A DNA stretch of 36,660 bases. Origin: a virus. The DNA is taken from the UHGV virus genome UHGV-0183637, one strand, 5' to 3'. How positions within the stretch are numbered: position 1 is the stretch's first letter; each line of letters starts with the position of its first letter. Both the position numbers and the translations under genes were made by a program. Below are positions 1,429-15,553 of the stretch, in pieces. The notes below the pieces were generated by a model, which saw only the letters and a list, made by a program, of their open reading frames with translations, was not told the DNA's origin and did no database searches.

Positions 1429-2055
1429 TCATGCTGATTTCTTGTTTACAGGCTTAGTTTCTTGCTCCGGTGTGACGGGAACGCGATCACCTGGTGTTCC
1501 TGCTCGGATACAGGATTTGGCGCGTTGCAAAATCTCTTTGTCAGTTTCTTCATTACCAGCCAATGCCACGCAAATGGCCTCTTTTAGAGAGTCCCTTATG
1601 TTTAAGTTACGTATAACAGTTTCTATGTCTGTTTCTACTGACGTAGCCAGCCGATTCAAAATCCCTTTTACACCAATTTCTGATGCTGCTATCGCTAACG
1701 CTTTTCGATCCTTACTACTCACAAATCCTAACAATGAAACGATTAACGCAACAGAATCATCGTCGCAATCGAACTTTGGTTCGATTTTTTCATAATTATT
1801 CGAATCATTGCCTTGTGGTTGTTCTCCTGTCAGTAGCCACATAAGTGAAACACCACAGGCATCGGCAACCCTTGCTGCGCTATCAATGGTTGGGTAACTA
1901 TCTCCCCTTAGGTATTTCCTGACAGATGCTTCAGATAAGCCACTACGGCGAGCAATCTCACTTTTGTTTAGCCCCCCCATCGCTTTTTCCAGTCTTTCGC
2001 CAAAGCGTACTATTTGCTCATTATGAAAAGTACGATCATGTTTAATTGATGTCAT
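1429..2055 (-). CDS. Prophage repressor, XRE/lambda-CI-type HTH with uncharacterised C-terminal domain
   Basis: 208 aa. N-terminal HTH segment LNKSEIARRSGLSEASVRKYLRGDSYPTIDSAARVADACGVSLMWLLTGEQ. Leftward-transcribed and divergent from ner-A-B, the position of Mu c. GGGAGA RBS-like sequence upstream on the minus strand. No obvious S24 peptidase motif in the C-terminal half. Confidence 0.8.
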   Translation of the reverse strand: MTSIKHDRTFHNEQIVRFGERLEKAMGGLNKSEIARRSGLSEASVRKYLRGDSYPTIDSAARVADACGVSLMWLLTGEQPQGNDSNNYEKIEPKFDCDDDSVALIVSLLGFVSSKDRKALAIAASEIGVKGILNRLATSVETDIETVIRNLNIRDSLKEAICVALAGNEETDKEILQRAKSCIRAGTPGDRVPVTPEQETKPVNKKSA

Positions 2056-2516: not shown

Positions 2517-4559
2517 GTGTGGTTTGTAGTGCGGGATTGCCTGGGATTATCCGGTTTTCCATCAGCAGAAAAAAACATCCGGGCACGTCTGGATCGTCTT
2601 GCTGAAAATAACCCGGAATGGAAGCGCAAGCGTGAAGGCACCAAAGCATTCGAGTATCGCATCGACTGCCTGCCCGCTGAAGCGCAGAAAGTTTTACGTA
2701 AGCGCCTGACCCATCAGGTCCTGGAAGATGCACAACTGCCCGCCGTAGTTGAGCAGAAAGCAGTTAAAAACGTCGCCGTTCGCGATGAACTGGAGGTGAT
2801 GGTCAAATGCCCGGAGCTGGCATTACGCGAAGTCCAGTCACTGACCGACAAGCAAAAGGCCATCGCTGATGCGCGGATATTGCTGGCTACTGAAGTGCAT
2901 AAGCTGCGCGAGTATGCCGGAATGACCAGGAAGGCCGCTTTAAAGCACATCGTTGATGGTGTGCGCATGGGGGCGTTACCTGACCGCATTATCGAAGCAG
3001 CGAATACTGCAAATGCACGTCAGGGAAAGCGAACCGGTGTCAGCACCGGCAGCCTGGATAGCTGGTACTCCAGCTGGGTGATGGCGCGCGGTGATGCCAA
3101 TCAGTTACTGGCGTTACTGGCTCCCGGTCATCATAAGGGAACACCGTGGGAGCAGGTCTGGTGGTTGAGCGATTTCTTTATGTTCTATCGCTCATGGAAG
3201 CGCCCGACCGTTGAATACGCGTATCGCGAGTTTTCAGCCTGGTGGCATGAAAAACACGCGAATGATGCGGGAATGCTGGCGGCACTGCCTTCAGTTCACG
3301 CAGTAAGACGGGTGTTAAGCAGCGTCCCGGTGATTGTTAAAGAGCGTTTCCGCTCCACCGGTTCAGCCTGGCGTTCGCTCAATCCCTTTGTGCGGCGCGA
3401 CTGGACATCGCTACCGGTTAATGCGGTATGGGTCGGAGATGGTCACTGTATGAAAATGACCGCGTTTAACCCCCTGACCGGCAATATTTTCCGGCCAGAA
3501 GTGACGCTGGTTATGGATGCGGGGCAGCGTTTTGTTGTGGGATGGTCACTGTCCCTGTCGGAGAACGTGATAGCTGTTGCTGATGCGTTGCGTTACGGCA
3601 TGGCGCAGCACGGGATACCGCTGATTTATTACTCCGATAACGGGGGCGGTGAAAAAAACCGGGTTCTTGATGCCGATATTACCGGGATTCTCCCCCGGCT
3701 GGGTGTGGAACATCACACGGGGATACCAGGTAACCCGCAGGGGCGCGGGGTGATTGAAAGGCTTAACAAGGAAATTCCCCGGGATGTGGCCCTGAGTTTC
3801 CAGACGTACTGCTCAAAGGGAGCAGACAAGGAAACCGTAATGATGCAGCAACGGATTATGCAGTCAGCCATTAAGGCCACCCACAAAGGGAAAGAACTGA
3901 CAAAACGGCAGGTTAAGGCGAGGGATGAAGTCCCCACCTTTGAGCAACTGATGGCAGCCATAGAACTGGAGGTCAGACGCTATAACAACCGGCCACACAG
4001 CAGCCTTCCCCGCAAAGAGGATGGCGAATATTACAGCCCGGCAGCGTATCGCCGGAAACTGATAAAAGAGCAGAATGTTGAAATTGATTTCCTGTCGCCG
4101 GAAGAACTGCATGAAATGTTCAGACCGGAAGTGACGCGCAAAACATTTCGCGGGGAAATTCAGTTATTCAACAATATTTATTACTCGTATGAGCTGGCCG
4201 CAGAGCACGGGAATGAAGTCAGGGTCAGTTACGATATTCATGATGCAAACAGCGTCATTGTCCGGCGGGCTGATGGCTCTTATATCTGCGATGCCATCTG
4301 GAACGGTAACAAGGTTGATGCCTTCGCTAAACCAGTTATCGAGCAAAAACTGGAGAAACGCGTCAGAGGCCGCATTGCACGGGCCGCGCAGAAAATCGAA
4401 GAGGCTAAACGCGAGCTTACCCCGGCTATTACGCAGAAGCCTGAGTTTAATCTGGGATATGGACTGGAACGCCAGGAGAAAAAGGAAAAAGAAGAACTTT
4501 ATTTATTCGCATCTGAACGCGAGCGCAATTTAAAGAAAAACGGCACAAACAACCGTTAA
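2517..4559 (+). CDS. Mu-type DDE transposase (MuA-like)
   Basis: 680 aa, GTG start after an AAGGTGGA RBS. N-terminus M-WFVVRDCLGLSGFP parallels MuA MELWVSPKECANLPGLP (enhancer/operator-binding domain). Central region WVGDGH...LVMDAGQRFVVGW...YYSDNGG is consistent with a Mu-family DDE core. Confidence 0.9.
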   Translation: MWFVVRDCLGLSGFPSAEKNIRARLDRLAENNPEWKRKREGTKAFEYRIDCLPAEAQKVLRKRLTHQVLEDAQLPAVVEQKAVKNVAVRDELEVMVKCPELALREVQSLTDKQKAIADARILLATEVHKLREYAGMTRKAALKHIVDGVRMGALPDRIIEAANTANARQGKRTGVSTGSLDSWYSSWVMARGDANQLLALLAPGHHKGTPWEQVWWLSDFFMFYRSWKRPTVEYAYREFSAWWHEKHANDAGMLAALPSVHAVRRVLSSVPVIVKERFRSTGSAWRSLNPFVRRDWTSLPVNAVWVGDGHCMKMTAFNPLTGNIFRPEVTLVMDAGQRFVVGWSLSLSENVIAVADALRYGMAQHGIPLIYYSDNGGGEKNRVLDADITGILPRLGVEHHTGIPGNPQGRGVIERLNKEIPRDVALSFQTYCSKGADKETVMMQQRIMQSAIKATHKGKELTKRQVKARDEVPTFEQLMAAIELEVRRYNNRPHSSLPRKEDGEYYSPAAYRRKLIKEQNVEIDFLSPEELHEMFRPEVTRKTFRGEIQLFNNIYYSYELAAEHGNEVRVSYDIHDANSVIVRRADGSYICDAIWNGNKVDAFAKPVIEQKLEKRVRGRIARAAQKIEEAKRELTPAITQKPEFNLGYGLERQEKKEKEELYLFASERERNLKKNGTNNR

Positions 4560-4577: not shown

Positions 4578-5471
4578 ATGAGTTTAATTACGCAATTAAA
4601 TGACGTAATGGCCCGTCGCGGCTATACGCAAACCCACGTCGCCCGTGCTATTGGTCGTAGCAGCGCCGTTATCAACCAGTATTTACAGGGTAAATATCAG
4701 GGCGATATGGCTGATATTGAAGAACGCATTTCTGCCTTTGTGACCCGTGAGCGGGAAAAGGAAAACAGCCGCCGTATTAAAGCGAAATTTGTTGCCACCG
4801 GTATGGCTGCCAAAGGACTGGAGGTGTTGGCCTATGCTCACCTGGAATGTGAAATCTGCGTACTGTATGGCGCGGCAGGTCTTGGCAAAACAATGATTCT
4901 GCGTGAATACGCCGCCAGAAACCGGGATGCGGTCCTGATTGAAGCCGACCCGGGCTATACAGCCAGAACACTGCTTGAGGAGTTGTGCCGCCAGCTGGGG
5001 GTAAAGGTTCGCGGCAACATTCACGAACTGATAGATGCCTGTGTGCGCGAACTGCGTGATTCCGGTCGCCTGCTGATGGTGGACGAGGCTGAACTGCTCC
5101 CCTATCGCGCACTGGAGGTTCTGCGTCGTCTGCATGACAAAGCGGGTATCGGGGTTGTCCTGGCGGGTATGCCTCGTCTTCTGATTAACCTTAAGGGGCG
5201 TCGTGGTGAGTTCGCCCAGTTATACAGCCGTGTGGCGCTGGCGCTTAACCTGGGCGATACGTTGTCGCAGGAAGATTTTAACCAGATAGCTACCGGGTTG
5301 ATGCCGGAAGCAGCAGAACCGGAAATCAGCGAGGCGCTTTACGCACGCTCGCTGGGTAATGCCCGCCGCCTCTTCAAACTGGCGCGCGGTGTGTACCGGA
5401 TTTGTGATATCAGCGATGCACCGGTCAGTGTGCAGGCCATTGATAAATTCGCAGAAATGTTAATTCACTGA
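4578..5471 (+). CDS. Transposition ATPase / target DNA activator (MuB-like AAA+)
   Basis: 297 aa. N-terminal HTH-like segment (GYTQTHVARAIGRSSAVINQY), Walker A GAAGLGKT, Walker B LLMVDEAE. Immediately downstream of the transposase gene. Confidence 0.85.
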   Translation: MSLITQLNDVMARRGYTQTHVARAIGRSSAVINQYLQGKYQGDMADIEERISAFVTREREKENSRRIKAKFVATGMAAKGLEVLAYAHLECEICVLYGAAGLGKTMILREYAARNRDAVLIEADPGYTARTLLEELCRQLGVKVRGNIHELIDACVRELRDSGRLLMVDEAELLPYRALEVLRRLHDKAGIGVVLAGMPRLLINLKGRRGEFAQLYSRVALALNLGDTLSQEDFNQIATGLMPEAAEPEISEALYARSLGNARRLFKLARGVYRICDISDAPVSVQAIDKFAEMLIH

Positions 5472-5710
5472 TGGAGAACAAGACGATGGACAAGCAGACC
5501 ATTAACGCCGTCCGTTCCCGTGCCCGTGTGGCCATCCACACCACCGGCGGTCGTGTAACGGGGCAACATCACCGTTTACCTGTGGTTTATGCCTGCCCAC
5601 CTGTGGGTGGTCCTGTATGGCCGGTAACGGAAATCATCCAGACATTCAGTGGCCTGCGTCGTGTGGTTAAAACGTCCTGTATCGACGGCTGCACCGTCGT
5701 ATGGCAGTAA
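5471..5710 (+). CDS. Hypothetical early protein
   Basis: 79 aa; start overlaps the B stop (TGATG), suggesting translational coupling. No recognisable motif. Confidence 0.45.
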   Translation: MENKTMDKQTINAVRSRARVAIHTTGGRVTGQHHRLPVVYACPPVGGPVWPVTEIIQTFSGLRRVVKTSCIDGCTVVWQ

Positions 5711-5725
5711 AACGAGGAACTTAAA

Positions 5726-5881
5726 ATGTCATTAGAGCTTGAGTTAACTTTCAGCCTGGACAGGCCAGGTAAACCGGAGAAAACCGTCGCGACGTATCAG
5801 TTGCCGCCTGATGTCACGGGAGAGCAGGTTTTCCGACATTATCATAAAAACTCACTGTTTTATGAACGAAATTATTTTTAA
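5726..5881 (+). CDS. Hypothetical small protein (51 aa)
   Basis: ATG at 5726, stop TAA at 5879..5881; MSLELELTFSLDRPGKPEKTVATYQLPPDVTGEQVFRHYHKNSLFYERNYF. Fills an otherwise uncovered gap on the coding strand; below the ORF-track length cut-off. Confidence 0.3.
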   Translation: MSLELELTFSLDRPGKPEKTVATYQLPPDVTGEQVFRHYHKNSLFYERNYF

Positions 5882-5907
5882 ATCGTTTGATTTCAAAGGA
5901 GAAAAAC

Positions 5908-6123
5908 ATGGCGGTTAAGTTAGAAGTAATTATCTATACCAATGAAAAAGGCGCGACTTTTACCCGGATTACAGGGAGTTATTCGAAGGATGGCGCTTCC
6001 AAAAGGGAGCTTCAGGTGGCAACAGGATTACATGATGTTATCAAGGAAGCACTGAGAAATGACTATAACGGCGTGAATCTTTTTTCTGAAAACGTTGCGC
6101 CTCGCGCACATAACACAAATTAA
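5908..6123 (+). CDS. Hypothetical early protein
   Basis: ATG at 5908 preceded by AAGGAG (the track's TTG start at 5887 is less likely); 71 aa. Confidence 0.5.
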   Translation: MAVKLEVIIYTNEKGATFTRITGSYSKDGASKRELQVATGLHDVIKEALRNDYNGVNLFSENVAPRAHNTN

Positions 6124-6152
6124 TCTGTAAATATCACTGAGGTAATTTAATT

Positions 6153-6797
6153 ATGACGACTGAAAATAAAGTTAAGCAATATACAAAAAATAAAGTGCAG
6201 GAAGGCTACTGGGTTGATGCCCGTGGTGTGATGACGCCTGAAAGTCTTATCAAAGATATTGACCGCGACCGTGAGCAGTTGGTCGGTGAGCTTGTGGAGA
6301 TGGTGATTGCTGCCTCCGCCTCACTGCGTGAACTGAAACTGCGTGCGTTTGGTGATATTCAGGCATTTATTGACCTGTCAGCGGAGAAATACGGCGCTGT
6401 GAAAGGCGGTAAAAAAGGGAATATCACGCTTTACAGCTTTGACGGGCGTTACAAGATTCAGCGCGCCATGCAGGACCGTATTGCGCTTGATGAACGCATT
6501 CAGACCGCGAAGGCACTGATTGATGACTGCCTGGCTGACTGGACGGAAGGTGCACGCCCAGAAATCAAAGCCATCATCAGTGAGGCATTCAGCACGGACA
6601 AGGAAGGCAACATTAACACCGGGCGCGTTCTGGCTCTGCGTCGCCTCGAAATTGAGGACGAACGCTGGAATAACGCCATGACGCTGATTGGTGAAGCCGT
6701 CCAGGTAATTGGCAGCAGAAGTTATATCCGCGTGTATGAGCGCGTCGGTGATTCTGCTGAATACCGCGCAATCCCGCTTGATATTGCAGGGGTCTAA
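6153..6797 (+). CDS. Conserved Mu-like early-region protein (possibly DUF3164-like)
   Basis: 214 aa, balanced composition, same strand and position as Mu semi-essential early genes. Family assignment is from memory only and is tentative. Confidence 0.65.
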   Translation: MTTENKVKQYTKNKVQEGYWVDARGVMTPESLIKDIDRDREQLVGELVEMVIAASASLRELKLRAFGDIQAFIDLSAEKYGAVKGGKKGNITLYSFDGRYKIQRAMQDRIALDERIQTAKALIDDCLADWTEGARPEIKAIISEAFSTDKEGNINTGRVLALRRLEIEDERWNNAMTLIGEAVQVIGSRSYIRVYERVGDSAEYRAIPLDIAGV

Positions 6798-6798
6798 C

Positions 6799-7032
6799 AT
6801 GCATCAGGATATCAAAGAGTACAGAGCCGGGAACCGTTGCGCGGCGTATTCGCTGGGCGCGTCCAGAGCAGAACAACGCGGCGATTATGCCGAGGCTGAA
6901 AAGCTGTGGCGTAAGGCAGCGCAAAGTCCATGTAGTACCCTGCGCCGCATCTGGGCGGAACATCGTGCAGAGTTCTGTGCTAATGCTCACCTGAAAGGAT
7001 GGAAGCCGATTCATGAACGCGAAACGCTTTAA
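6799..7032 (+). CDS. Hypothetical small protein
   Basis: ATG at 6799 directly after the stop of the previous gene; MHQDIKEYRAGNRCAAYSLGASRAEQRGDYAEAEKLWRKAAQ... The track ORF 6709..7032 extends upstream through the previous gene in another frame. Confidence 0.5.
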   Translation: MHQDIKEYRAGNRCAAYSLGASRAEQRGDYAEAEKLWRKAAQSPCSTLRRIWAEHRAEFCANAHLKGWKPIHERETL

Positions 7033-7204
7033 TCAGTTATATCCGCCTGGTACTCGTTTCATGCACATTGCACATCAGGCGGTGCGTGGTGGTCGGGTGG
7101 TAAAAACTGTTGCACCGGCCAGAGATTTTAAATGTGGTTGTGTGGTTGAAATTAATGTCGAGCCTTATTTCGTTAAAGTCGAGACACTGAAAGCAGCGCA
7201 TTAA
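7013..7204 (+). CDS. Hypothetical small protein
   Basis: 63 aa; overlaps the previous ORF by 20 nt. Confidence 0.4.
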   Translation: MNAKRFNQLYPPGTRFMHIAHQAVRGGRVVKTVAPARDFKCGCVVEINVEPYFVKVETLKAAH

Positions 7205-7234
7205 TTTAATTCAATTTTAATTGTTATTTAAAAC

Positions 7235-7267
7235 AGGCGTAAACCCGCCGGGGCTGACTTACGCCTG
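7235..7267 (+). repeat. Conserved intergenic stem-loop H1 (GGCGTAA...TTACGCC) followed by TGAAT
   Basis: CAGGCGTAAacccgccggggctgacTTACGCCTG then TGAATCTGGAG and the start codon. Near-identical copy at 8311, structurally equivalent copy at 7693. Confidence 0.55.
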
Positions 7268-7284
7268 AATCTGGAGAAATGAAA

Positions 7285-7671
7285 ATGAGTGTTACCGTTA
7301 TCAATGAAATGCTCGGGCGTACATTTAAAGAAGTAGTTAAGACTGAAAACGATGAACTTGTTTTTCGTGGTGATTATTCCCGGGGAGTATGGGGAACCGT
7401 GTTTACATTTTTCCACTTTCAGGAAGGCTGCGAAAAAGTCTGGATTGAGGACATCGTCGGAGACCTTGACGACCTGAAAGATGAACCGCTGACAGAGGCT
7501 GAAGTGGTTACCGAAGAATGTGATGTCGGGGAAGGTCATCAGACATGGAGTTTCTTTAAGTTCGGCACATCAAAAGGCTGTGTAGTCGTCAGATGGTGCG
7601 GTGAGAGCGAGGGCTTTTATTCTGAGTGCGTTTCACTGAAGCGGGAATTAACTGACGTCTTCGATTTTTAA
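7285..7671 (+). CDS. Hypothetical protein, AT-rich accessory gene
   Basis: ATG at 7285 (alternative 7279), 8 nt after GGAG; 128 aa; lower GC than the surrounding phage genes; no recognisable family. Confidence 0.6.
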   Translation: MSVTVINEMLGRTFKEVVKTENDELVFRGDYSRGVWGTVFTFFHFQEGCEKVWIEDIVGDLDDLKDEPLTEAEVVTEECDVGEGHQTWSFFKFGTSKGCVVVRWCGESEGFYSECVSLKRELTDVFDF

Positions 7672-7692
7672 CTCTGACTTCGTTTTTTTATG

Positions 7693-7715
7693 GCGCAGGT
7701 AAACAGGTCTGCGCC
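7693..7715 (+). repeat. Conserved intergenic stem-loop H2 (GGCGCAG...CTGCGCC) followed by TGAAT
   Basis: GGCGCAGgtaaacaggtCTGCGCC then TGAATTAAGGGGA and ATG at 7736; stem sequence differs from H1/H3 but pairing is preserved. Confidence 0.5.
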
Positions 7716-7735
7716 TGAATTAAGGGGATTTGTAT

Positions 7736-8281
7736 ATGAAAGATAAAGTCTGGGAATTTATTGTTACTCCTGAAGGTTTTGCTGTCCGTTCATCTGGGAA
7801 GTTAACCAATGTAACGTTATGGGCGTCATCATTGCTGGGCCATCTGGGTGCACCTGGCGATTTTATGTATGTGGTACTTGATGCGCAGATTGCCGGGAAT
7901 GCTATGGCCAGTAAGGGGGCTTATATTCAGGGGGATTTGTTCGCCATGATGGCGAATGACACAGCCGCGCTGTATATCGCCACACGGAACATACTGACAA
8001 GAATATCCATGATGTCTGACTGTAAGGATATGGTAGACCTTGCATACATCCTTGAAGATGATTTGCTCACTATTTCAGGCGTGCAGGAATCCCTCCCGCG
8101 TCAGCTGCGGTTTATTGACCTGATGGAGTCATATAAAGATAAGCCTGATTTTTTTCAGATTCGATTCAGCGGGATGGAACTGCTGGATGAATATTATCCG
8201 CTGGATTCGATTGCCCGTGATGTGAAGGCGTTCGTAAAGTCTGTTGACCGTCATTACCGGAAAGCTGAACGTCGTAGTTAA
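7736..8281 (+). CDS. Hypothetical protein, AT-rich accessory gene
   Basis: ATG at 7736, 7 nt after AAGGGGA (track TTG start 7730); 181 aa; no recognisable family. Confidence 0.6.
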   Translation: MKDKVWEFIVTPEGFAVRSSGKLTNVTLWASSLLGHLGAPGDFMYVVLDAQIAGNAMASKGAYIQGDLFAMMANDTAALYIATRNILTRISMMSDCKDMVDLAYILEDDLLTISGVQESLPRQLRFIDLMESYKDKPDFFQIRFSGMELLDEYYPLDSIARDVKAFVKSVDRHYRKAERRS

Positions 8282-8310
8282 TAAGTCTGTTTTTAATTTT
8301 ATTTGTATAT

Positions 8311-8340
8311 GGCGTAAACCCGCCAGGGCTGGCTTACGCC
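8311..8340 (+). repeat. Conserved intergenic stem-loop H3 (GGCGTAA...TTACGCC) followed by TGAAT
   Basis: GGCGTAAacccgccagggctggcTTACGCC then TGAATCTGAGGAAG; near-identical to H1. Confidence 0.55.
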
Positions 8341-8419
8341 TGAATCTGAGGAAGTTTATTTATGAATATCGCCAAGCAAAAAAAATTCGCCCGCGAAATT
8401 AATCTGACAATCGTTTGTT

Positions 8420-8638
8420 TTAATCGTCTTGCGACCAGTTTTCAATCGACAGCAGATGTTCATCCAGCGCCGCAGCCAGAACGAACTCCCCACGTTCCTG
8501 AAGGCCGTGCTGGAAGTTGCGTAATTCAGAATCCAGGGCGCTGAGGTTCAGACAGCCATTTTCTGAAAGCTGTTTAACCAGAAAGCTCCACGCAGCTTTG
8601 TTAGCAGTAATTGCTGCCGCAATTTCATCATCAATCAT
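8420..8638 (-). CDS. Small acidic protein on the opposite strand (72 aa)
   Basis: Minus-strand ORF with AGGAG RBS about 7 nt upstream and host-like codon usage (CTG, GAA, GCG rich). 13 Asp/Glu versus 4 Lys/Arg, C-terminal ...IENWSQDD. One of only two minus-strand genes inside the prophage. Confidence 0.6.
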   Translation of the reverse strand: MIDDEIAAAITANKAAWSFLVKQLSENGCLNLSALDSELRNFQHGLQERGEFVLAAALDEHLLSIENWSQDD

Positions 8639-8726
8639 TTTTTAACTCCTGATTGGGCATGTTGGGGCAGCGATTATGACAAGTGTCTTGCGGTTATAAG
8701 TTGATCAAAAACAATGAGTTACAACC

Positions 8727-9437
8727 ATGAAAGATAAATACATTGCCAAAATCAAAAAACTGTTACGCCTTGCCAGAGGAACATCAAGCCCGGAAGAAGC
8801 CGCTAACGCTATTGCAAAAGCCCAGGCCTACATGCGCCAGCATGGCATCAGCGAAAACGACGCGGAATTGTTCGACATTCAGGAAGCTGCCAGCGCGGGT
8901 GCGCCGAGTGATGCCAGTACGCCGCCGCGTTATATGCACATCCTGTGTGACCTGGTCTGTAAAGCCTTCGGTGTCGAGTGTTACATCTCCGGCGAATACC
9001 GGGCTTCTGGTTCACTCAAACGTTACGTGCGTTTTTATGGTCCTGACAGCCGCCCGGAGATTGCGGCCTACGCGTTTGATGTGCTTTCCCGTCAGATGAT
9101 GGCTGAACGTAAAAAATATCAGGATAAACACTGCAAACGTTGTGGTCCGTCCACGCGGGTAGCCCGTGGCGACCAGTTCTGCGAAGGCTGGGTCTTTGGT
9201 GCCCGTGATGTCATTGCGGTGTATGACGTCTCCCCGGAAGAAAAAAGCCGCCTTGAGCTTTACAGAAAGAACCTGCACAGCACTAAGGGGTTGCGCGACG
9301 GGGATATGCGCACAGCTAAAGCGTGCCGGGGTGCAGAGTTTGCCGCTACAGCCGGTTTTATCGCCGGGAAAAACGCCAGGCTGCATCAGGGGGTTAATGG
9401 TCAGAGCAACAGACCGCTGGCACTGGGGAGGGTGTAA
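8727..9437 (+). CDS. DUF2786-like phage protein
   Basis: 236 aa; N-terminus KIKKLLRLARGTSSPEEAANAIAKAQAYMRQHGI resembles the conserved N-terminal helix of DUF2786-family phage proteins (from memory). Confidence 0.65.
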   Translation: MKDKYIAKIKKLLRLARGTSSPEEAANAIAKAQAYMRQHGISENDAELFDIQEAASAGAPSDASTPPRYMHILCDLVCKAFGVECYISGEYRASGSLKRYVRFYGPDSRPEIAAYAFDVLSRQMMAERKKYQDKHCKRCGPSTRVARGDQFCEGWVFGARDVIAVYDVSPEEKSRLELYRKNLHSTKGLRDGDMRTAKACRGAEFAATAGFIAGKNARLHQGVNGQSNRPLALGRV

Positions 9438-9667: not shown

Positions 9668-9888
9668 ATATTGAATTTTATGACTACGGAGTCACCGCAA
9701 AAATCATTGTTACCTGCTGGTTCTGGGAGTTCCGCCGCTATTGCCGGGTTGTGGATGCGACGCTGTTTGTGGCTCCTGAAGTGCGCCACCAGAGTGGCGG
9801 TGGCCTTTTAATGAAAACCGTCATCACCGGTAAAACGGTTCCGATGTTACGGGCGTTTAAAGTGGCAAAACAGGAGGCTGCACAATGA
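9664..9888 (+). CDS. Hypothetical small protein
   Basis: 74 aa; ATGA start/stop overlap with the preceding ORF. Confidence 0.5.
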   Translation: MNIEFYDYGVTAKIIVTCWFWEFRRYCRVVDATLFVAPEVRHQSGGGLLMKTVITGKTVPMLRAFKVAKQEAAQ

Positions 9889-10076
9889 GTAACGAGCACA
9901 TCCATCATTATCAGCGTGATGGGTCAATTTTCATATGCCAGCGTTGCGGCACAGCAAAGCATCGTAATGGTAAATACTGGTGGGCCGGTCGCTATTCAGA
10001 ATCTGAACCACCATGTGGTGATGATGTTGTGGGGCAGGATGCGTGGTTTGAAACTGCAAAAAGCGAGGAAGGATGA
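9885..10076 (+). CDS. Hypothetical small Cys-containing protein
   Basis: 63 aa; ATGA overlap with the preceding ORF; CQRCG plus a further Cys suggest a possible zinc-ribbon. Confidence 0.5.
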   Translation: MSNEHIHHYQRDGSIFICQRCGTAKHRNGKYWWAGRYSESEPPCGDDVVGQDAWFETAKSEEG

Positions 10077-10269: not shown

Positions 10270-10680
10270 GTGAAGAAAATGATTTTTGTGGCGGCATTGC
10301 TGACCATTACCCAACAGGCGCAGGCTTCAGCAGTTATTGTGGCATCTACTGCTGCGACCACTGCTGCCGCAGCTGCTGCGAACTCTGCGAATATCGCAAA
10401 CCAACAGGCACAGCGTGCTGCTAATGCATCAGCCAGTGCTCTCCCGATTTCTGTTAAGGACAGTAAGCAAAATCTGGGGTTCATAACGTGCGGTAAGCGT
10501 TCTTCTGAAGCTGTAGGCTCACTGGGATGTACGGTATATGGCGACAGTGAGAGCAGAGAAATTCCATGGAAAACGTGGCCCGGATACGTTCTTGGCTCGA
10601 AGCTCCCGGCCAGTTATGAGGTAAACGCTGTGTCGTTTGACCACTATAACGGTGTGGCAACTGTCTATTTCACATACTGA
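10270..10680 (+). CDS. Secreted alanine-rich protein (signal peptide)
   Basis: N-terminus MKKMIFVAALLTITQQAQA then ASAV...; low-complexity Ala/Thr/Asn stretch; C-terminal half has two Cys. Confidence 0.6.
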   Translation: MKKMIFVAALLTITQQAQASAVIVASTAATTAAAAAANSANIANQQAQRAANASASALPISVKDSKQNLGFITCGKRSSEAVGSLGCTVYGDSESREIPWKTWPGYVLGSKLPASYEVNAVSFDHYNGVATVYFTY

Positions 10681-10779
10681 GTCCCGGCATGAAATTTTCT
10701 GAATCACGGAGTAACAACTCGATGAAAACTATCACCGTAACGGTTGAAATCGACGTTCCTGATAACGCGGGGTGAAAAT

Positions 10780-11031
10780 ATGAGATGGGTTGACCTTTTT
10801 ATTATCGCTCTGATTGTTACGGGTATTGCGCTTTGTGTGACAACTAACAAGGCTTCTGATGATGCGAAAAATGGGCATTGCGTGGTAAAGAGAAATTTCA
10901 TCAAAACCATTACGCATTGTGATGATGGAAGCGCCACCATGACCGACGGAGATAAGTTTATTTATTGCTCTGCGGGGAAAAATGGCACGCCATCCTGTCA
11001 TGAAGTGACGCTCGGTGATGGTGATAAATAA
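10780..11031 (+). CDS. Small membrane-anchored Cys-rich protein
   Basis: ATG at 10780 (MRWVDLFIIALIVTGIALCVTTNK...), N-terminal hydrophobic anchor then a soluble part with five Cys. Confidence 0.55.
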   Translation: MRWVDLFIIALIVTGIALCVTTNKASDDAKNGHCVVKRNFIKTITHCDDGSATMTDGDKFIYCSAGKNGTPSCHEVTLGDGDK

Positions 11032-11111: not shown

Positions 11112-11390
11112 ATGAAAATTGAACAAATCGGAATGGCAGCCTTCCGGCAGCAGGCTGAAAGCGGTGGCGTGGATGAGTTCGTCGTGCAGCGGTTCGGTGG
11201 TGTGTATCACCTCTTCGCTGTGAATCGCCACGCCGGGGTGTCCTATTTTCTACAGGAACGCCGTGGCGATTACAAGACGTGGCTGTCTCTTGACCGTGCC
11301 GCCGCGTTCCTGTCGGGGATTGGTGTTTCACGTTTTACCGTGCGTTTTGAGGATAACAAACATGCTGAAAAAGATGATCGGAGCCATTAA
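11112..11390 (+). CDS. Hypothetical protein
   Basis: ATG at 11112 directly downstream of the palindromic sites; 92 aa; weak RBS; overlaps the GemA-like start by 29 nt. Confidence 0.45.
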   Translation: MKIEQIGMAAFRQQAESGGVDEFVVQRFGGVYHLFAVNRHAGVSYFLQERRGDYKTWLSLDRAAAFLSGIGVSRFTVRFEDNKHAEKDDRSH

Positions 11391-11760
11391 AGCCGGTCAG
11401 GCGTATCTGGGGTGGGATGATGCCCTTTATCGTCAGACGCTGGCCCGCCTGACCGGTAAAACCAGCACCACACGCTGCAACCTCGATGAACTGCGCATCA
11501 TCCGGGAATACATGCATGAACAGGGATTTCCGCGTAAGGCACCCGCCGGTAAAGGTCGCCGCCCCCGTGTTGCAATGAGCAGAAAATCGATATTATCCAA
11601 AATTGAAGCGTTGCTGGCTGATGCCGGTCGTTCCTGGGCGTATGCAGAAGGACTGGCATCTCACATGTATAAGCAACATGTGATCGAATGGCTGACAGAT
11701 GATCAACTGTTTGGGGTGATGGTGGCGCTGGTTAAAGATTCAAGAAGGAGAAATCAATGA
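11362..11760 (+). CDS. GemA-like regulatory protein (Mu gp16 family)
   Basis: ATG at 11362 after GAGGA; MLKKMIGAIKAGQAYLGWDDALYRQTLARLTGKTSTTRCNLDELRIIREYMHEQGF resembles the GemA family and sits upstream of the Mor/C-family gene, as in Mu. Confidence 0.7.
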   Translation: MLKKMIGAIKAGQAYLGWDDALYRQTLARLTGKTSTTRCNLDELRIIREYMHEQGFPRKAPAGKGRRPRVAMSRKSILSKIEALLADAGRSWAYAEGLASHMYKQHVIEWLTDDQLFGVMVALVKDSRRRNQ

Positions 11761-12233
11761 TGAAAAAATGGTTGTTTTGTTTAGTAGGAGTTATTTTCTC
11801 TTGTTCTGCGCTGGCTCAGACAGAGGAACAGGCGCAAAAAGAACTGAAACGTTATCAGGATATGAAGCCATTGGCTGAACAGATGCTTCGGGAAAGTGGA
11901 AAACTTTATTACGCTATGCCAGCGGCAGCATCGCAGTACCAGCAGGGGAATATTGAAGAGTGGAAGAATATCAAAAAAGGACTAAAACAACTGGATGAAC
12001 AGGCCAGTAAACTGGGGGACGACCCGCTTGATCCTGTGTATGGTTCCTGCATAAAAATGAAAAACCAGCTACAGGATTACTGGTCTAACGTTATCAGGGA
12101 TGACAGGCAGTTTCTGGAACGTTCAAGAAATCAGTTTAAAGAATATCGTATGGATTGTTTTGATTCGTTTGTTTTTGGTAAAGAGCAAATAGAATCAAGA
12201 AAAGGCCTGGTTATTCTAGACCTGACTAAATAA
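11757..12233 (+). CDS. Secreted (periplasmic) protein of unknown function
   Basis: ATGA overlap with the GemA-like stop; signal peptide MMKKWLFCLVGVIFSCSALA then QTEE; AT-rich codon usage; followed by a rho-independent terminator. Confidence 0.65.
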   Translation: MMKKWLFCLVGVIFSCSALAQTEEQAQKELKRYQDMKPLAEQMLRESGKLYYAMPAAASQYQQGNIEEWKNIKKGLKQLDEQASKLGDDPLDPVYGSCIKMKNQLQDYWSNVIRDDRQFLERSRNQFKEYRMDCFDSFVFGKEQIESRKGLVILDLTK

Positions 12234-12333: not shown

Positions 12334-12801
12334 ATGCAGACCTTCAGTGAAACAGATCTTCGCGATGCGCAGGCACTGCTGCCCGATTCCGTGCAGCAAC
12401 TGATTAGCGTGATTGGCTTCCCCGCCCTGACCCGGTTAATCCGTTCTTTTGGTGGCGTGACGTTAAGCGGTAAAACCGGCGCACACGCCGAACGAACCGG
12501 CGGTGTCCATGCCCTGTTACATGATGTGCTGACCGAAGACGAAATCAACAAACTGATCCGCTTTCTTGGCGGTGCACCGTTTTACATTCCCCGTTGCGAT
12601 CATGCGTTACGTGCCCTGCGTAACACCCGTTTTATGGCTGATTTACAGCAGCATGTAAAAGACGGATGCTCACACCGGCAGGCGCTGGCACTGCTCTGTC
12701 CCCGTTACGGGATTTCAGACCGGTATGCATGGCAACTGATACACCGACGACAAAAACAGACTTCGCTGAAAAGCCCCACCCAGGTGGGGCTTTTTGATTA
12801 A
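12334..12801 (+). CDS. Mor/C-family transcriptional activator
   Basis: 155 aa; FLGGAPFYIPRCDHALRALRN matches the GG..YIPR signature of Mu Mor/C, with a C-terminal HTH (YGISDRYAWQLIHRR). GGAGA RBS 7 nt upstream. A GC-rich stem-loop plus T-run overlaps the 3' end. Confidence 0.8.
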   Translation: MQTFSETDLRDAQALLPDSVQQLISVIGFPALTRLIRSFGGVTLSGKTGAHAERTGGVHALLHDVLTEDEINKLIRFLGGAPFYIPRCDHALRALRNTRFMADLQQHVKDGCSHRQALALLCPRYGISDRYAWQLIHRRQKQTSLKSPTQVGLFD

Positions 12802-13156: not shown

Positions 13157-13303
13157 CCAGCAGTACCCACCACACCAGACCGTTTACCCTGTCCACTCAG
13201 ACCACAAGGCACCTTAAGGGATAGCGCCCTGCAAAAGGCTTTTGTGCCTTTGACAGGGTGTTATTTACGGGCCGTCAGTGGCTCAGATTTACAGGAGAAA
13301 CTC

Positions 13304-13717
13304 ATGTCTGAACCCTTATCAGGCGGCGGAGCTGTGGCAGTCACCATCGGTGGTGCCAGTGTGTTTGGTCTTCTCACCAATACCGATTTCGGGGTTGTGG
13401 TGGGCGCGTTTGCCGGGGCGCTTTTTGTTGTCACGCAGCAGAAAGAAATCCCGGTATGGCGAATGGCTATTCACCTGCTCGTCGCGTTTGTGGTTGGCGT
13501 TCTGGGGGCTGGCGTGGCTGCGTCACTGATGCAGTGGCTGACCCACTACAACGACAAGCCGCTCGATGCATTGTGTGCGGTCGGTGTCTCGGCATTATCC
13601 ATCAAGATACTGACCTTTTTTTATCAGCAGGAAATCAAAGTCCTGCTCGGTATGTTCTCAAAACTGTTCAACCTCGTATCAAAGTTGTGCGGTGGAGGGG
13701 GTGAAAATGGAAAGTAG
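13304..13717 (+). CDS. Holin-like multi-pass membrane protein
   Basis: ATG at 13304 after CAGGAGA; 137 aa with several Gly/Ala/Val-rich hydrophobic segments; first gene of the lysis cluster. Confidence 0.55.
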   Translation: MSEPLSGGGAVAVTIGGASVFGLLTNTDFGVVVGAFAGALFVVTQQKEIPVWRMAIHLLVAFVVGVLGAGVAASLMQWLTHYNDKPLDALCAVGVSALSIKILTFFYQQEIKVLLGMFSKLFNLVSKLCGGGGENGK

Positions 13718-14732: not shown

Positions 14733-15053
14733 ATGAAACAAAAAGAAAACACCGCGATTGCACTGGTGGAAGCCGCTGTTCCCGGGCGTCCCTTTAAGTT
14801 CGGACTGACGCAGGTTGTGGCTTTGCACGTCAGCGGAGAATGCGGGGAAATTAAAGCCCGTACCCAGTATGCAGATGGTGAAAACCGTTATCTGGTTTAT
14901 TACCAGGACGCCCGCAAGGCAGCACAGCTGAAATGGTTTGGCGAGTCCATGCTGGAAATGATTGAGGATATCCGCCATCCCGGAATGCCTGTATTTGCAG
15001 TCACCGAACTACCTGATGGCGCAACGGTTTCAGATACCCGGAAGGGCGTTTGA
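14733..15053 (+). CDS. Hypothetical protein
   Basis: 106 aa; between lysis and terminase genes. Confidence 0.55.
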   Translation: MKQKENTAIALVEAAVPGRPFKFGLTQVVALHVSGECGEIKARTQYADGENRYLVYYQDARKAAQLKWFGESMLEMIEDIRHPGMPVFAVTELPDGATVSDTRKGV

Positions 15054-15553
15054 TGGCGTGGTCACAGGATATCAGGGACAAAGTCCGTAACGGGTACATC
15101 TTTGACCAGCTTCCGCTGGATATCGTCGCCATGAAGTACGCCGTGCCGCACGACACCGCGCGGCGCTGGAAAACGCAGGCGATGAAGAACGGCGACGACT
15201 GGGACAAGCTGCGAGCCGCGCACGCGCTCGCCGGTGACGGGCTGGAAAGTGTCGCCCGCACCGTGCTTATCAGTCTGGTGGTGAAGTGTCAGACGACGCT
15301 TGAACGGCTGAACCAGAACCCGGACATCCCGCCGCAGGAGTCCGTCGAACTGCTGGCGAGTCTGTCTGACAGTCTCAGTAAGGCGGTGGCTAGCAGCAAA
15401 AAAATCCTGCCGGAAACCGACCGGCTCGCCACGGCACTGGAAGTGGTGCAGCGGCTCGGCGCGTTCATCAAGGAGCGTCACCCGGCACAGTATGCCCCGT
15501 TTCTTGAGGTGCTCGAAGGCTTCGCTAAAGAGCTTGAGGATAATTTCAGTTAA
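15050..15553 (+). CDS. Putative terminase small subunit (Mu gp27-like)
   Basis: 167 aa immediately upstream of the terminase large subunit; N-terminal region looks DNA-binding. Call is by position and size. Confidence 0.5.
   Translation: MMAWSQDIRDKVRNGYIFDQLPLDIVAMKYAVPHDTARRWKTQAMKNGDDWDKLRAAHALAGDGLESVARTVLISLVVKCQTTLERLNQNPDIPPQESVELLASLSDSLSKAVASSKKILPETDRLATALEVVQRLGAFIKERHPAQYAPFLEVLEGFAKELEDNFS

Follow-up and report, generated by a model that had tools for sequence, protein, structure and literature searches.

The window analysed in this work is the whole 36,660-nucleotide stretch of the virus genome UHGV-0183637, which by its gene content is a Mu-like (transposable) prophage almost throughout. 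We examined the small genes that follow the transposition gene B, at 5471-8300 in the proximal part of the accessory early region, and found that two variable, AT-rich genes of this region lie as separate cassettes in a single slot behind the gene o6, each cassette ending in a hairpin and the short motif CGCCTGAAT. We are highly confident of this modular architecture of the slot. Comparison with relatives established the exactness of the junctions, the presence of the two cassettes (A and B) independently of each other, the conserved position of the hairpin module in divergent lineages and a much lower divergence of cassette A than of its flanks. The region overall is of an ordinary kind, a Mu-like accessory early operon, and its unreported feature is the single slot with hairpin/CGCCTGAAT-delimited cassettes. 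In terms of operon organization, 5471-8726 is probably the accessory ('semi-essential') part of the early operon, composed of a conserved backbone and one insertion slot after o6. A preliminary description of this DNA had presented the region as a set of orphan genes likely to be accessory cargo; its observation was partly confirmed, and its interpretation was partly supported, for the two cargo genes only.

The hairpin-delimited slot

In the window the slot and its downstream anchor consist of the following elements (nt, nucleotides; aa, amino acids; ORF, open reading frame; SD, Shine-Dalgarno sequence):

7205-7270, + strand: module copy 1, a 66-nt leader with an AT-rich run, a hairpin and the core CGCCTGAAT at 7262-7270
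7271-7720, + strand: cassette A, 450 nt, with an SD leader, the DUF7448 gene, an AT-rich run, a type-2 hairpin and CGCCTGAAT at 7712-7720
7721-8345, + strand: cassette B, 625 nt, with an SD leader, the gene of a 181-aa orphan protein, an AT-rich run, a hairpin (8311-8317/8334-8340) and CGCCTGAAT at 8337-8345
8346-8726: terminal segment in its long form, with a 60-aa + strand ORF (8362-8544) and an overlapping 72-aa minus strand ORF (8420-8638)
8727-9437, + strand: DUF2786/DUF7168 gene (PF10979, PF23771), the conserved downstream anchor of the slot

The stem of copy 1 is formed by GGCGTAA (7236-7242) and TTACGCC (7259-7265) and can be extended to 7234-7267. The third hairpin, between the two genes, is the type-2 hairpin of cassette A; it has a different stem (GGCGCAG at 7692-7698 and CTGCGCC at 7709-7715) followed by the same CCTGAAT. 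Exactly three copies of the module occur in the window, all on the + strand and each with a start codon 8-17 nt behind it. The two-gene block lies between the arms of a 72-nt direct repeat, at 7207-7278 and 8282-8353, which share 79% identity; the core of the repeat is the imperfect hairpin GGCGTAA/TTACGCC, followed by TGAAT, an SD and ATG.

The slots of 26 loci were split at CGCCTGAAT to define segments, which are ordered as the 66-nt leader, an optional 450-nt unit, an optional 625-nt unit and one of four terminal segments (23, 215, 373 or 384 nt in the relatives). Every segment boundary lies right after CGCCTGAAT in 24 of the 26 loci, and in these the leader measures 66 nt (65 in two loci); the remaining two, L013 and L019, carry the variant CGCCTGAGT and gave no split. 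Cassette A (450 nt; 443 in L018) and cassette B (625 nt; 613-624 in some alleles) are each present as a whole or absent as a whole, with a hairpin at the cassette's own 3' end. Where only the orphan gene is present, its own leader (TAAGGGG...) directly follows a type-1 hairpin, and where only the DUF7448 gene is present, the type-2 hairpin is kept and joined to the leader of DUF2786. The DUF2786 gene follows the module directly in minimal relatives, and the well-studied enteropathogenic (EPEC) strain E2348/69 has an empty slot. The fullest array seen, with both cassettes and the long terminal segment, is that of the window, whose interval between o6 and DUF2786 is the longest in a range of 86 to 1522 nt (26 loci). 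Two close relatives, L021 and L034, have a 121-aa cargo gene with the leader and the first six codons of the orphan. Cassette A was 99.1-99.6% identical in nucleotides to the window copy where the adjacent o6 was only 86.5-88.5% identical, and was thus exchanged recently in relation to its flanks.

A related prophage was carried by 58 of 5,426 complete Escherichia coli genomes. Both cassettes were found in 10 of them, the 181-aa gene only in 18, the DUF7448 gene only in five and neither in 25 (four of these with a leader match only). What had been described as a two-gene block therefore consists of two cassettes that are present or absent independently, and does not behave as one unit. To separate backbone from cargo, about 21 close loci from RefSeq and IMG/VR were examined. 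The genes for Kil, DUF3164, the ANR homologue, o6 and DUF2786, together with the next two ORFs, were present in all of them. The o3 position was filled in every locus, by alleles ranging from about 46% to more than 90% aa identity, and o2 occurred in some loci only, at 65-75% identity, and was missing from many relatives. The expectation that the early genes would prove variable among relatives thus held for the two AT-rich genes and for o2, but not for kil, DUF3164, ANR and o6, which every close relative has. We also noticed IS1A within the early accessory region of the related prophage of E. coli RM9088 (NZ_CP042298.1; hits H35 and H95), which carries a more diverged A+B array (88.7% identity) followed directly by DUF2786.

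The two reading frames of the terminal segment could be told apart to some extent by their ratios of non-synonymous to synonymous polymorphism (pN/pS). The 60-aa + strand ORF lies behind a module-type leader and has a ratio of 0.34 (0.09 in its N-terminal part). The 72-aa minus strand ORF, which is very acidic (net charge -9) and annotated in E2348/69, has a ratio of 0.93; AGGAG stands 7 nt before its ATG. The comparison favours the + frame over the minus frame. In most relatives a 169-nt deletion removes the start of the minus ORF and keeps the + ORF, and neither product matched any family.

The pattern GGCGTAA(N10-22)TTACGCCTGAAT was found in 45 IMG/VR contigs. We mapped ten divergent loci (eight IMG/VR contigs and the Morganella and Citrobacter loci from a genome scan), in which identity to the window protein is 26-59% for B, 37-54% for ANR and, in the loci with an o6 homologue, 33-80% for o6. 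In all ten the module stands directly after the ANR-o6 pair, or after ANR in the two loci without an o6 homologue, and is followed by DUF2786 or by small genes of 85, 78, 125 or 172 aa; further contigs, of unchecked synteny, have it before the gene of a 55-aa membrane protein. The 85-aa product, acidic-tailed and found in Morganella-type lineages (L042, L053, L074, L090), gave a weak match to phrog_15896 'Mu Gam-like end protection' (E 1.2e-5). That an exact 19-nt match stands next to genes whose proteins are only 33-60% identical speaks for selection acting on the sequence as such. With a covariance model based on 16 variants, the three + strand copies of the window were recovered, at 70.4, 43.0 and 70.4 bits, as were three copies in a lineage of the Salmonella type, which flank DUF7448 and another cargo gene; the model found no copies among distant Mu-like lineages, nor among phages that carry DUF7448 but are unrelated. 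When one genome of each species was scanned, there were 47 matches against about 56 expected by chance (our own calculation), the exceptions to the chance level being Morganella, Citrobacter, Kluyvera and Cedecea.

Proposed routes of cassette gain and loss

With respect to mechanism, we lean, somewhat beyond even expectation, towards recombination at the module. Its copies would be the substrate for ordinary homologous or microhomology recombination, which would add and remove cassettes either within one prophage or between co-resident or co-infecting relatives. The junctions would fall at CGCCTGAAT because it is the only sequence common to the type-1 and type-2 modules. The cassettes would have no promoter of their own and be read from the early promoter Pe within the early transcript in lytic growth, and the hairpin before each SD may act on the RNA as an intercistronic element, in processing, stability or translation. 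This RNA role, which would resemble that of the hairpins between cistrons in the early transcript of T7, is proposed tentatively.

Several points weigh against this account. Cassette A always precedes cassette B, and the four states found could all be reached by deletions from one A+B ancestor, with no insertion. A further point is the NON-INDEPENDENCE of the census: there are many clonal genomes among the 58 (eight OkiPb strains, four E2348/69 records, STEC306-308), so that the counts do not equal independent events. The wider set of modules was retrieved by a pattern that fixes the stem sequence, and the 'conservation' of the stem is therefore partly ascertainment. The fold z-scores computed with flanks are modest (-2.7, -1.8 and -0.6), and covariation, an underpowered measure here, was seen at two base pairs only, both from the single type-2 stem. 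Finally, the module is not universal, as DUF2786 occurs in distant Mu-like lineages without an upstream hairpin.

The arrangement of an ORF followed by an imperfect inverted repeat, with a boundary at a short conserved core and arrays of varying length, resembles integron cassettes, and the hairpin with CGCCTGAAT could be a dedicated recombination site like integron attC. A specific enzyme would cut and rejoin it, or it would serve in replicative transposition as single-stranded DNA in folded form, and cassettes would thereby be captured and excised actively. Each ORF does have its own imperfect inverted repeat at the 3' side, all junctions lie at the one core, the stem and core are identical in lineages with flanking proteins only 33-60% identical, and cassette A has spread recently relative to its flanks. 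In contrast to integrons, however, the site lies in a phage early operon, and the cassette order is fixed, A then B. No tyrosine or serine recombinase or IntI was found among the 44 ORFs scanned with Pfam, MuA being the only recombinase seen in them. The attC core consensus RYYYAAC...GTTRRRY, on reading the sequence by eye, is not fitted by the stems or by the boundary CGCCTGAAT, and GTTRRRY is absent. Ordinary recombination would also put the junctions at the only sequence shared by both module types. We consider a dedicated site quite improbable. We give about as little credence to the broader possibility that Enterobacterales Mu-like phages carry an undescribed, integrase-independent cassette system in which the hairpin (GGCGTAA...TTACGCC with TGAAT), at its fixed place behind the ANR-o6 pair, is an active recombination site, used as folded single-stranded DNA in replicative transposition or bound by a protein of the phage, for which the small, basic o6 is a candidate. 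If it were true, the site would serve to load the early operon with anti-host genes that can be exchanged, among them that of the acidic, DNA-mimic-like DUF7448 protein.

The hairpin might also be a purely regulatory or RNA-stability element, or a protein-binding DNA site, whose coincidence with the boundaries would follow from its being an intergenic marker, the variation itself arising from deletions and mosaicism. An SD and ATG always follow the module at 8-17 nt, the leaders are interrelated, the stem is conserved in sequence and beyond mere pairing ability, and precedents exist in the RNase III hairpins between cistrons of the early T7 transcript and in repetitive extragenic palindromic (REP) hairpins, which stabilise upstream mRNA. 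On the other hand, unrelated deletions would not give nucleotide-identical junctions in 24 of 26 loci and in a second lineage, a search of Rfam gave zero matches at E up to 1, there is no U-tract, and the absence of the hairpin before DUF2786 in distant lineages speaks against this explanation as well; we find it unlikely as the whole account. No + strand sigma-70 promoter-like site was detected in 5400-9000, so the module is not a promoter. Neither is it an intrinsic terminator, because no T-run follows: no terminator-like site (hairpin and T-run) was found at any module and no U-tract on the + strand, and on the minus strand a weak U-run occurs at copy 1 only.

Three other identities of the module were considered and rejected. 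A CsrA-type leader was dismissed since a loop GGA occurs only in the lineage with the 55-aa membrane-protein cargo and not in the window copies. A Gin/Hin gix site has a superficial resemblance in GTAAACC, but on reading the sequence the spacing of the half-sites is unfit. A host REP element was set aside because the module differs from the E. coli REP consensus, and because matches in the species scan are close to chance apart from the four Enterobacterales.

The closest described analogue for the gain and loss of cassettes is the PeSL-mediated shuffling of T4-type phages, where orphan genes that are not essential lie in plastic regions between short, repeated intergenic motifs with a stem-loop (Arbiol et al. 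2010, PMC2839356; PMC4122927) and differences between close relatives map to exchanges between the motifs (PMC2839356). Both features have their likeness here, as a repeated stem-loop flanks variable genes and the differences among relatives map to the motifs. However, a PeSL combines a strong sigma-70 early promoter with a functional terminator, whereas the module of the window has neither a promoter-like site nor a U-tract and is a hairpin with an SD inside one operon, in a single slot. In Pseudomonas Mu-like phages variable short ORFs are confined to specific loci of otherwise collinear genomes, and a mechanism that places acquired genes at fixed loci was the subject of speculation (Cazares et al. 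2014, PMC4378225). Those loci belong to a different phage group; here a concrete boundary motif was identified, which makes the module a concrete candidate landmark for gene placement in enterobacterial lineages.

Host-takeover and anti-defence proteins come in large part from the accessory early genes of temperate phages, which are usually found singly. A phage lineage that keeps such genes in a single slot with a recognisable boundary motif offers a search key, GGCGTAA(N10-22)TTACGCCTGAAT, which already yields unrelated small cargo genes of Enterobacterales Mu-like prophages and thus a candidate list for functional screens. The zero-, one- and two-cassette variants in sequenced strains also provide a natural and simple system for the gain and loss of orphan genes.

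Cargo and backbone proteins

The eight co-oriented ORFs reported after B were borne out, and a ninth (the 60-aa + ORF at 8362-8544) lies past the end of the region as first described, at 8300:

5471-5710, + strand: ORF1, 79 aa, basic (pI 10.1), first gene after B, conserved backbone; phrog_2679 'Kil', full length
5726-5881, + strand: ORF2 (o2), 51 aa, 42.9% GC, variable; phrog_38867, E 8e-23
5908-6123, + strand: ORF3 (o3), 71 aa, 42.1% GC; phrog_7438, E 1.4e-45
6153-6797, + strand: ORF4, 214 aa, DUF3164 (PF11363, E 1.2e-79), conserved backbone
6799-7032, + strand: ORF5, 77 aa, ANR (AraC negative regulator) family (NF033650), conserved backbone
7013-7204, + strand: ORF6 (o6), 63 aa, basic, conserved partner of ANR; phrog_5591, E 8e-41
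7285-7671, + strand: ORF7, 128 aa, DUF7448 (PF24240, E 1.4e-15), net charge -15
7736-8281, + strand: ORF8, the 181-aa orphan; phrog_7741, E 4e-119

All eight match PHROG families, and the view that these ORFs are orphans without recognisable motifs was refuted by the assignments of ORF1 (Kil), ORF4 (DUF3164), ORF5 (ANR) and ORF7 (DUF7448). The coordinates 7285-7671 and 7736-8281 agree with the lengths of the coding sequences in relatives in RefSeq (387 and 546 nt), and for the DUF7448 gene GGAG at 7273-7276 favours the ATG at 7285 over the ATG at 7279. The reading frames are intact in all alleles recovered from relatives, and pairwise pN/pS is 0.06 for ORF1, 0.47 for ORF3, 0.11 for ORF4, 0.10 for ORF5, 0.22 for ORF6, 0.23 for ORF7 and 0.46 for ORF8, so that these are real genes rather than chance ORFs. 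By the same ratios ORF3 and ORF8 are under relaxed or diversifying constraint. The part encoding DUF3164 is the sole stretch of the region with DNA matches in phage records; the gene is common to BcepMu-like and Pseudomonas Mu-like phages, and no solved relative of the protein was found.

The AT-richness that had singled out the two genes is real (45.2% and 46.2% GC against 53.7% for the prophage, with 52.7% in A and 54.0% in B) but modest, lying about 1.5 standard deviations below the mean of 400-nt windows, near the 10th percentile. Other early ORFs are equally or more AT-rich, both inside the region (o2 and o3, and o6 with 45.3% GC) and outside it (10744-11031 with 43.4% and 11757-12233 with 40.7%). 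Low GC goes fairly well with variability or fast evolution among the genes of the early region, and is a useful cue that is unspecific for the two genes.

The DUF7448 assignment of ORF7 is based on 58 bits against a Pfam cutoff of 27, over profile positions 2-103 of 104. A profile search gave at least 8,000 members, most of which stand alone, measure about 120 aa and share 40-50% identity with the E. coli protein, over a range from Firmicutes to Proteobacteria. The fold was also found in BFVD, in phages of Bacillus, Enterococcus, Providencia and Pseudomonas and in giant viruses. The family is uniformly and strongly acidic (median net charge -15, maximum pI 4.96 in 122 members), and in three sampled contexts its genes lie in early or replication modules near AAA_24, SNF2 helicase, primase, RusA, dNMP kinase, NT5C and Dam. 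One metagenomic protein of 222 aa, P0106, has DUF7448 fused C-terminally to MazG-type nucleotide pyrophosphohydrolase domains (PF03819, PF12643, PF01503), a possible hint of a nucleotide-related role.

The predicted fold of DUF7448 may resemble PIM7 (PDB 8owu; bioRxiv 10.1101/2021.10.19.465003), the immunity protein of the DNase toxin PT7, at 12% identity. DUF7448 might be an acidic binding protein that blocks a DNA-binding host enzyme, for example a nuclease, but we hold this to be doubtful. For the host-takeover or anti-defence role suggested in the preliminary description, the acidity and the putative fold of DUF7448 offer no more than an indirect lead. The match to PIM7 had no sequence support in a profile search of PDB sequences, the search of the DUF7448 model against PDB with Foldseek gave nothing below E 0.04, and PIM7 itself did not block PT7 activity in vitro (bioRxiv 10.1101/2021.10.19.465003). 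The conserved H, CC-E and GES-G-YSE motifs and the 40-50% identity across phyla would equally fit an enzyme or a ligand binder. Moreover, a gene of the PIM7 type would be expected directly downstream of a polymorphic toxin, whereas upstream of DUF7448 lies o6 (63 aa), and no toxin domain was found. Conservation across phyla is also much higher in DUF7448 than is usual for immunity proteins. DUF7448 is worth testing as a very large acidic family with no published function, which extends from Mu-like prophages to Bacillus phages and giant viruses.

The 181-aa protein is a true orphan, restricted to E. coli. A word-indexed search of 5.8 billion sequences returned only E. coli relatives, all at 83% identity or above, and exhaustive HMMER against 1.84 billion representatives gave two real matches and no remote homologue; two weak matches were to a repetitive junk protein and to a 1540-aa protein. 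There was no profile match in Pfam, NCBIfam, PADLOC or PDB. The model is all-helical with a pLDDT of 43.8, too low in confidence for a fold search, and residues 91-100 form an indel-variable stretch. In P0021, an E. coli protein of 173 aa, about 55% of the orphan (83% identity) is joined to a DUF1804 domain; as DUF1804 is a late-region gene here (15050-15553), P0021 probably arose when a decayed prophage lost a large internal stretch.

Prophage accessory slots often hold defence genes. The low GC and the variable, accessory character of the two AT-rich genes would fit 'morons' for lysogenic conversion or defence, which a repressed prophage expresses to the advantage of its host. However, both genes are co-oriented and tightly packed in the early operon, with no promoter-like site on the + strand and no terminator, and DUF7448 occurs in lytic phages, giant viruses and replication modules. 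The PADLOC scan gave no match of note for either gene, its marginal NsnC hit on the 51-aa ORF2 (E 0.0055) being dismissed, and we judge this explanation very improbable.

Among the backbone genes ORF5 is the easiest to interpret. It exceeds the cutoff of the NCBIfam model ANR_neg_reg (NF033650; 56.9 bits against 32), with residues 14-64 aligned to profile positions 2-52 of 54, and its relatives are annotated ANR in RefSeq. Its size (77 aa) is similar to that of Aar, a helical ANR of about 63 aa; ANRs of the Aar type bind AraC-family activators and H-NS (PMC5570504, PMC4983702), the partners of Aar itself being AggR and H-NS (PMC5570504). The known ANRs (Aar, Rnr, Cnr) accompany AraC/XylS virulence regulators (PMC4983702), whereas ORF5 belongs to the early core of a transposable phage, where it invariably forms a pair with o6 and has DUF3164 and o6 as neighbours, and no AraC/XylS domain was found in any scanned ORF across the window. 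Phage-borne ANRs are not discussed in PMC5570504 or PMC4983702. The ANR homologue may antagonise H-NS or an AraC-type regulator; an early phage antagonist of H-NS would make sense, compare T7 gp5.5, cited in the ANR literature. The presence of an ANR-family regulator in the core of a transposable phage suggests a possible phage origin or role for these 'virulence' regulators.

ORF1 overlaps the stop codon of B, occupies the same first position after B as Mu Kil and has a similar length (79 aa versus 74 aa). It matches phrog_2679 at E 8.4e-38, and over its last 25 aa it shares 36% identity with Mu Kil (BLASTP E 3.7e-4 and phmmer E 3.7e-5, in searches of 13 Mu proteins only), which points to a probable distant Kil homologue. 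A tblastn search of 50,697 phage records gave no match.

Prophage context and other variable sites

The placement in the early accessory region of a transposable phage, as first proposed, is borne out by c, ner, A and B upstream, GemA and Mor downstream and a standard Mu-like late region:

1429-2055, minus strand: CI-type repressor
2238-2507: Ner
2517-4559: transposase A
4578-5471: B, AAA+ protein
11362-11760: GemA
12334-12801: Mor

About 7 kb of small + strand ORFs follow B and end in GemA and Mor. Behind Mor come GH108 endolysin, DUF1804, Portal_Mu, Mu F, the Mu I protease, gpT and Gp36/37, of Mu-type lysis, head and tail, and the late region also encodes sheath, tape measure and the baseplate proteins P, Gp45, J and Gp48. 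The 44 ORFs scanned with Pfam were spread across the window; beyond 12.2 kb the scan took in ORFs of 140 aa or more, other than that at 13244-13717.

The semi-essential early region of Mu (kil, gp6-gp15, gam, gemA) lies in the same place between B and GemA/Mor, on the same strand, with the same tight packing and with Kil first. Nevertheless, only Kil (distantly) and GemA of Mu are related to early proteins of the window, there is no counterpart of Mu gp6-gp15 or Gam here, and the first 11 kb of Mu hold no GGCGTAA...TTACGCC hairpin. The preliminary description would have been undermined by homology of all ORFs to conserved Mu early proteins and by identical content in relatives; neither was found, as the content also differs among relatives.

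Variation was also seen at other early sites. At the B/kil junction (5471) some relatives (L010, L011, L013, L019, L021, L035) have about 375 extra nt that are lacking in the window and are annotated in L035 as a 110-aa hypothetical protein. The interval between kil and o3 varies through the presence or absence of o2 and, in some relatives, an extra 83-aa gene. Further early ORFs that occur in some relatives only lie at 9885-10076, 10270-10680, 10744-11031 and 11757-12233, none of them flanked by the hairpin module; the last, for which neither PHROG nor Pfam gave a match, is the gene with the highest AT content. Two early products, of 136 aa and 158 aa, have starts like signal peptides (MKKMIFVAALLTITQQAQA and MMKKWLFCLVGVIFSCSALAQ, respectively), the latter with a lipobox-like motif.

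To the left of the prophage, the C-terminal part of a minus strand ORF (511-1236) resembles what we take to be transaldolase A, and its N-terminus is unrelated. The prophage appears to be inserted in this gene, presumably talA, with the phage end seemingly at the TG near 1117.

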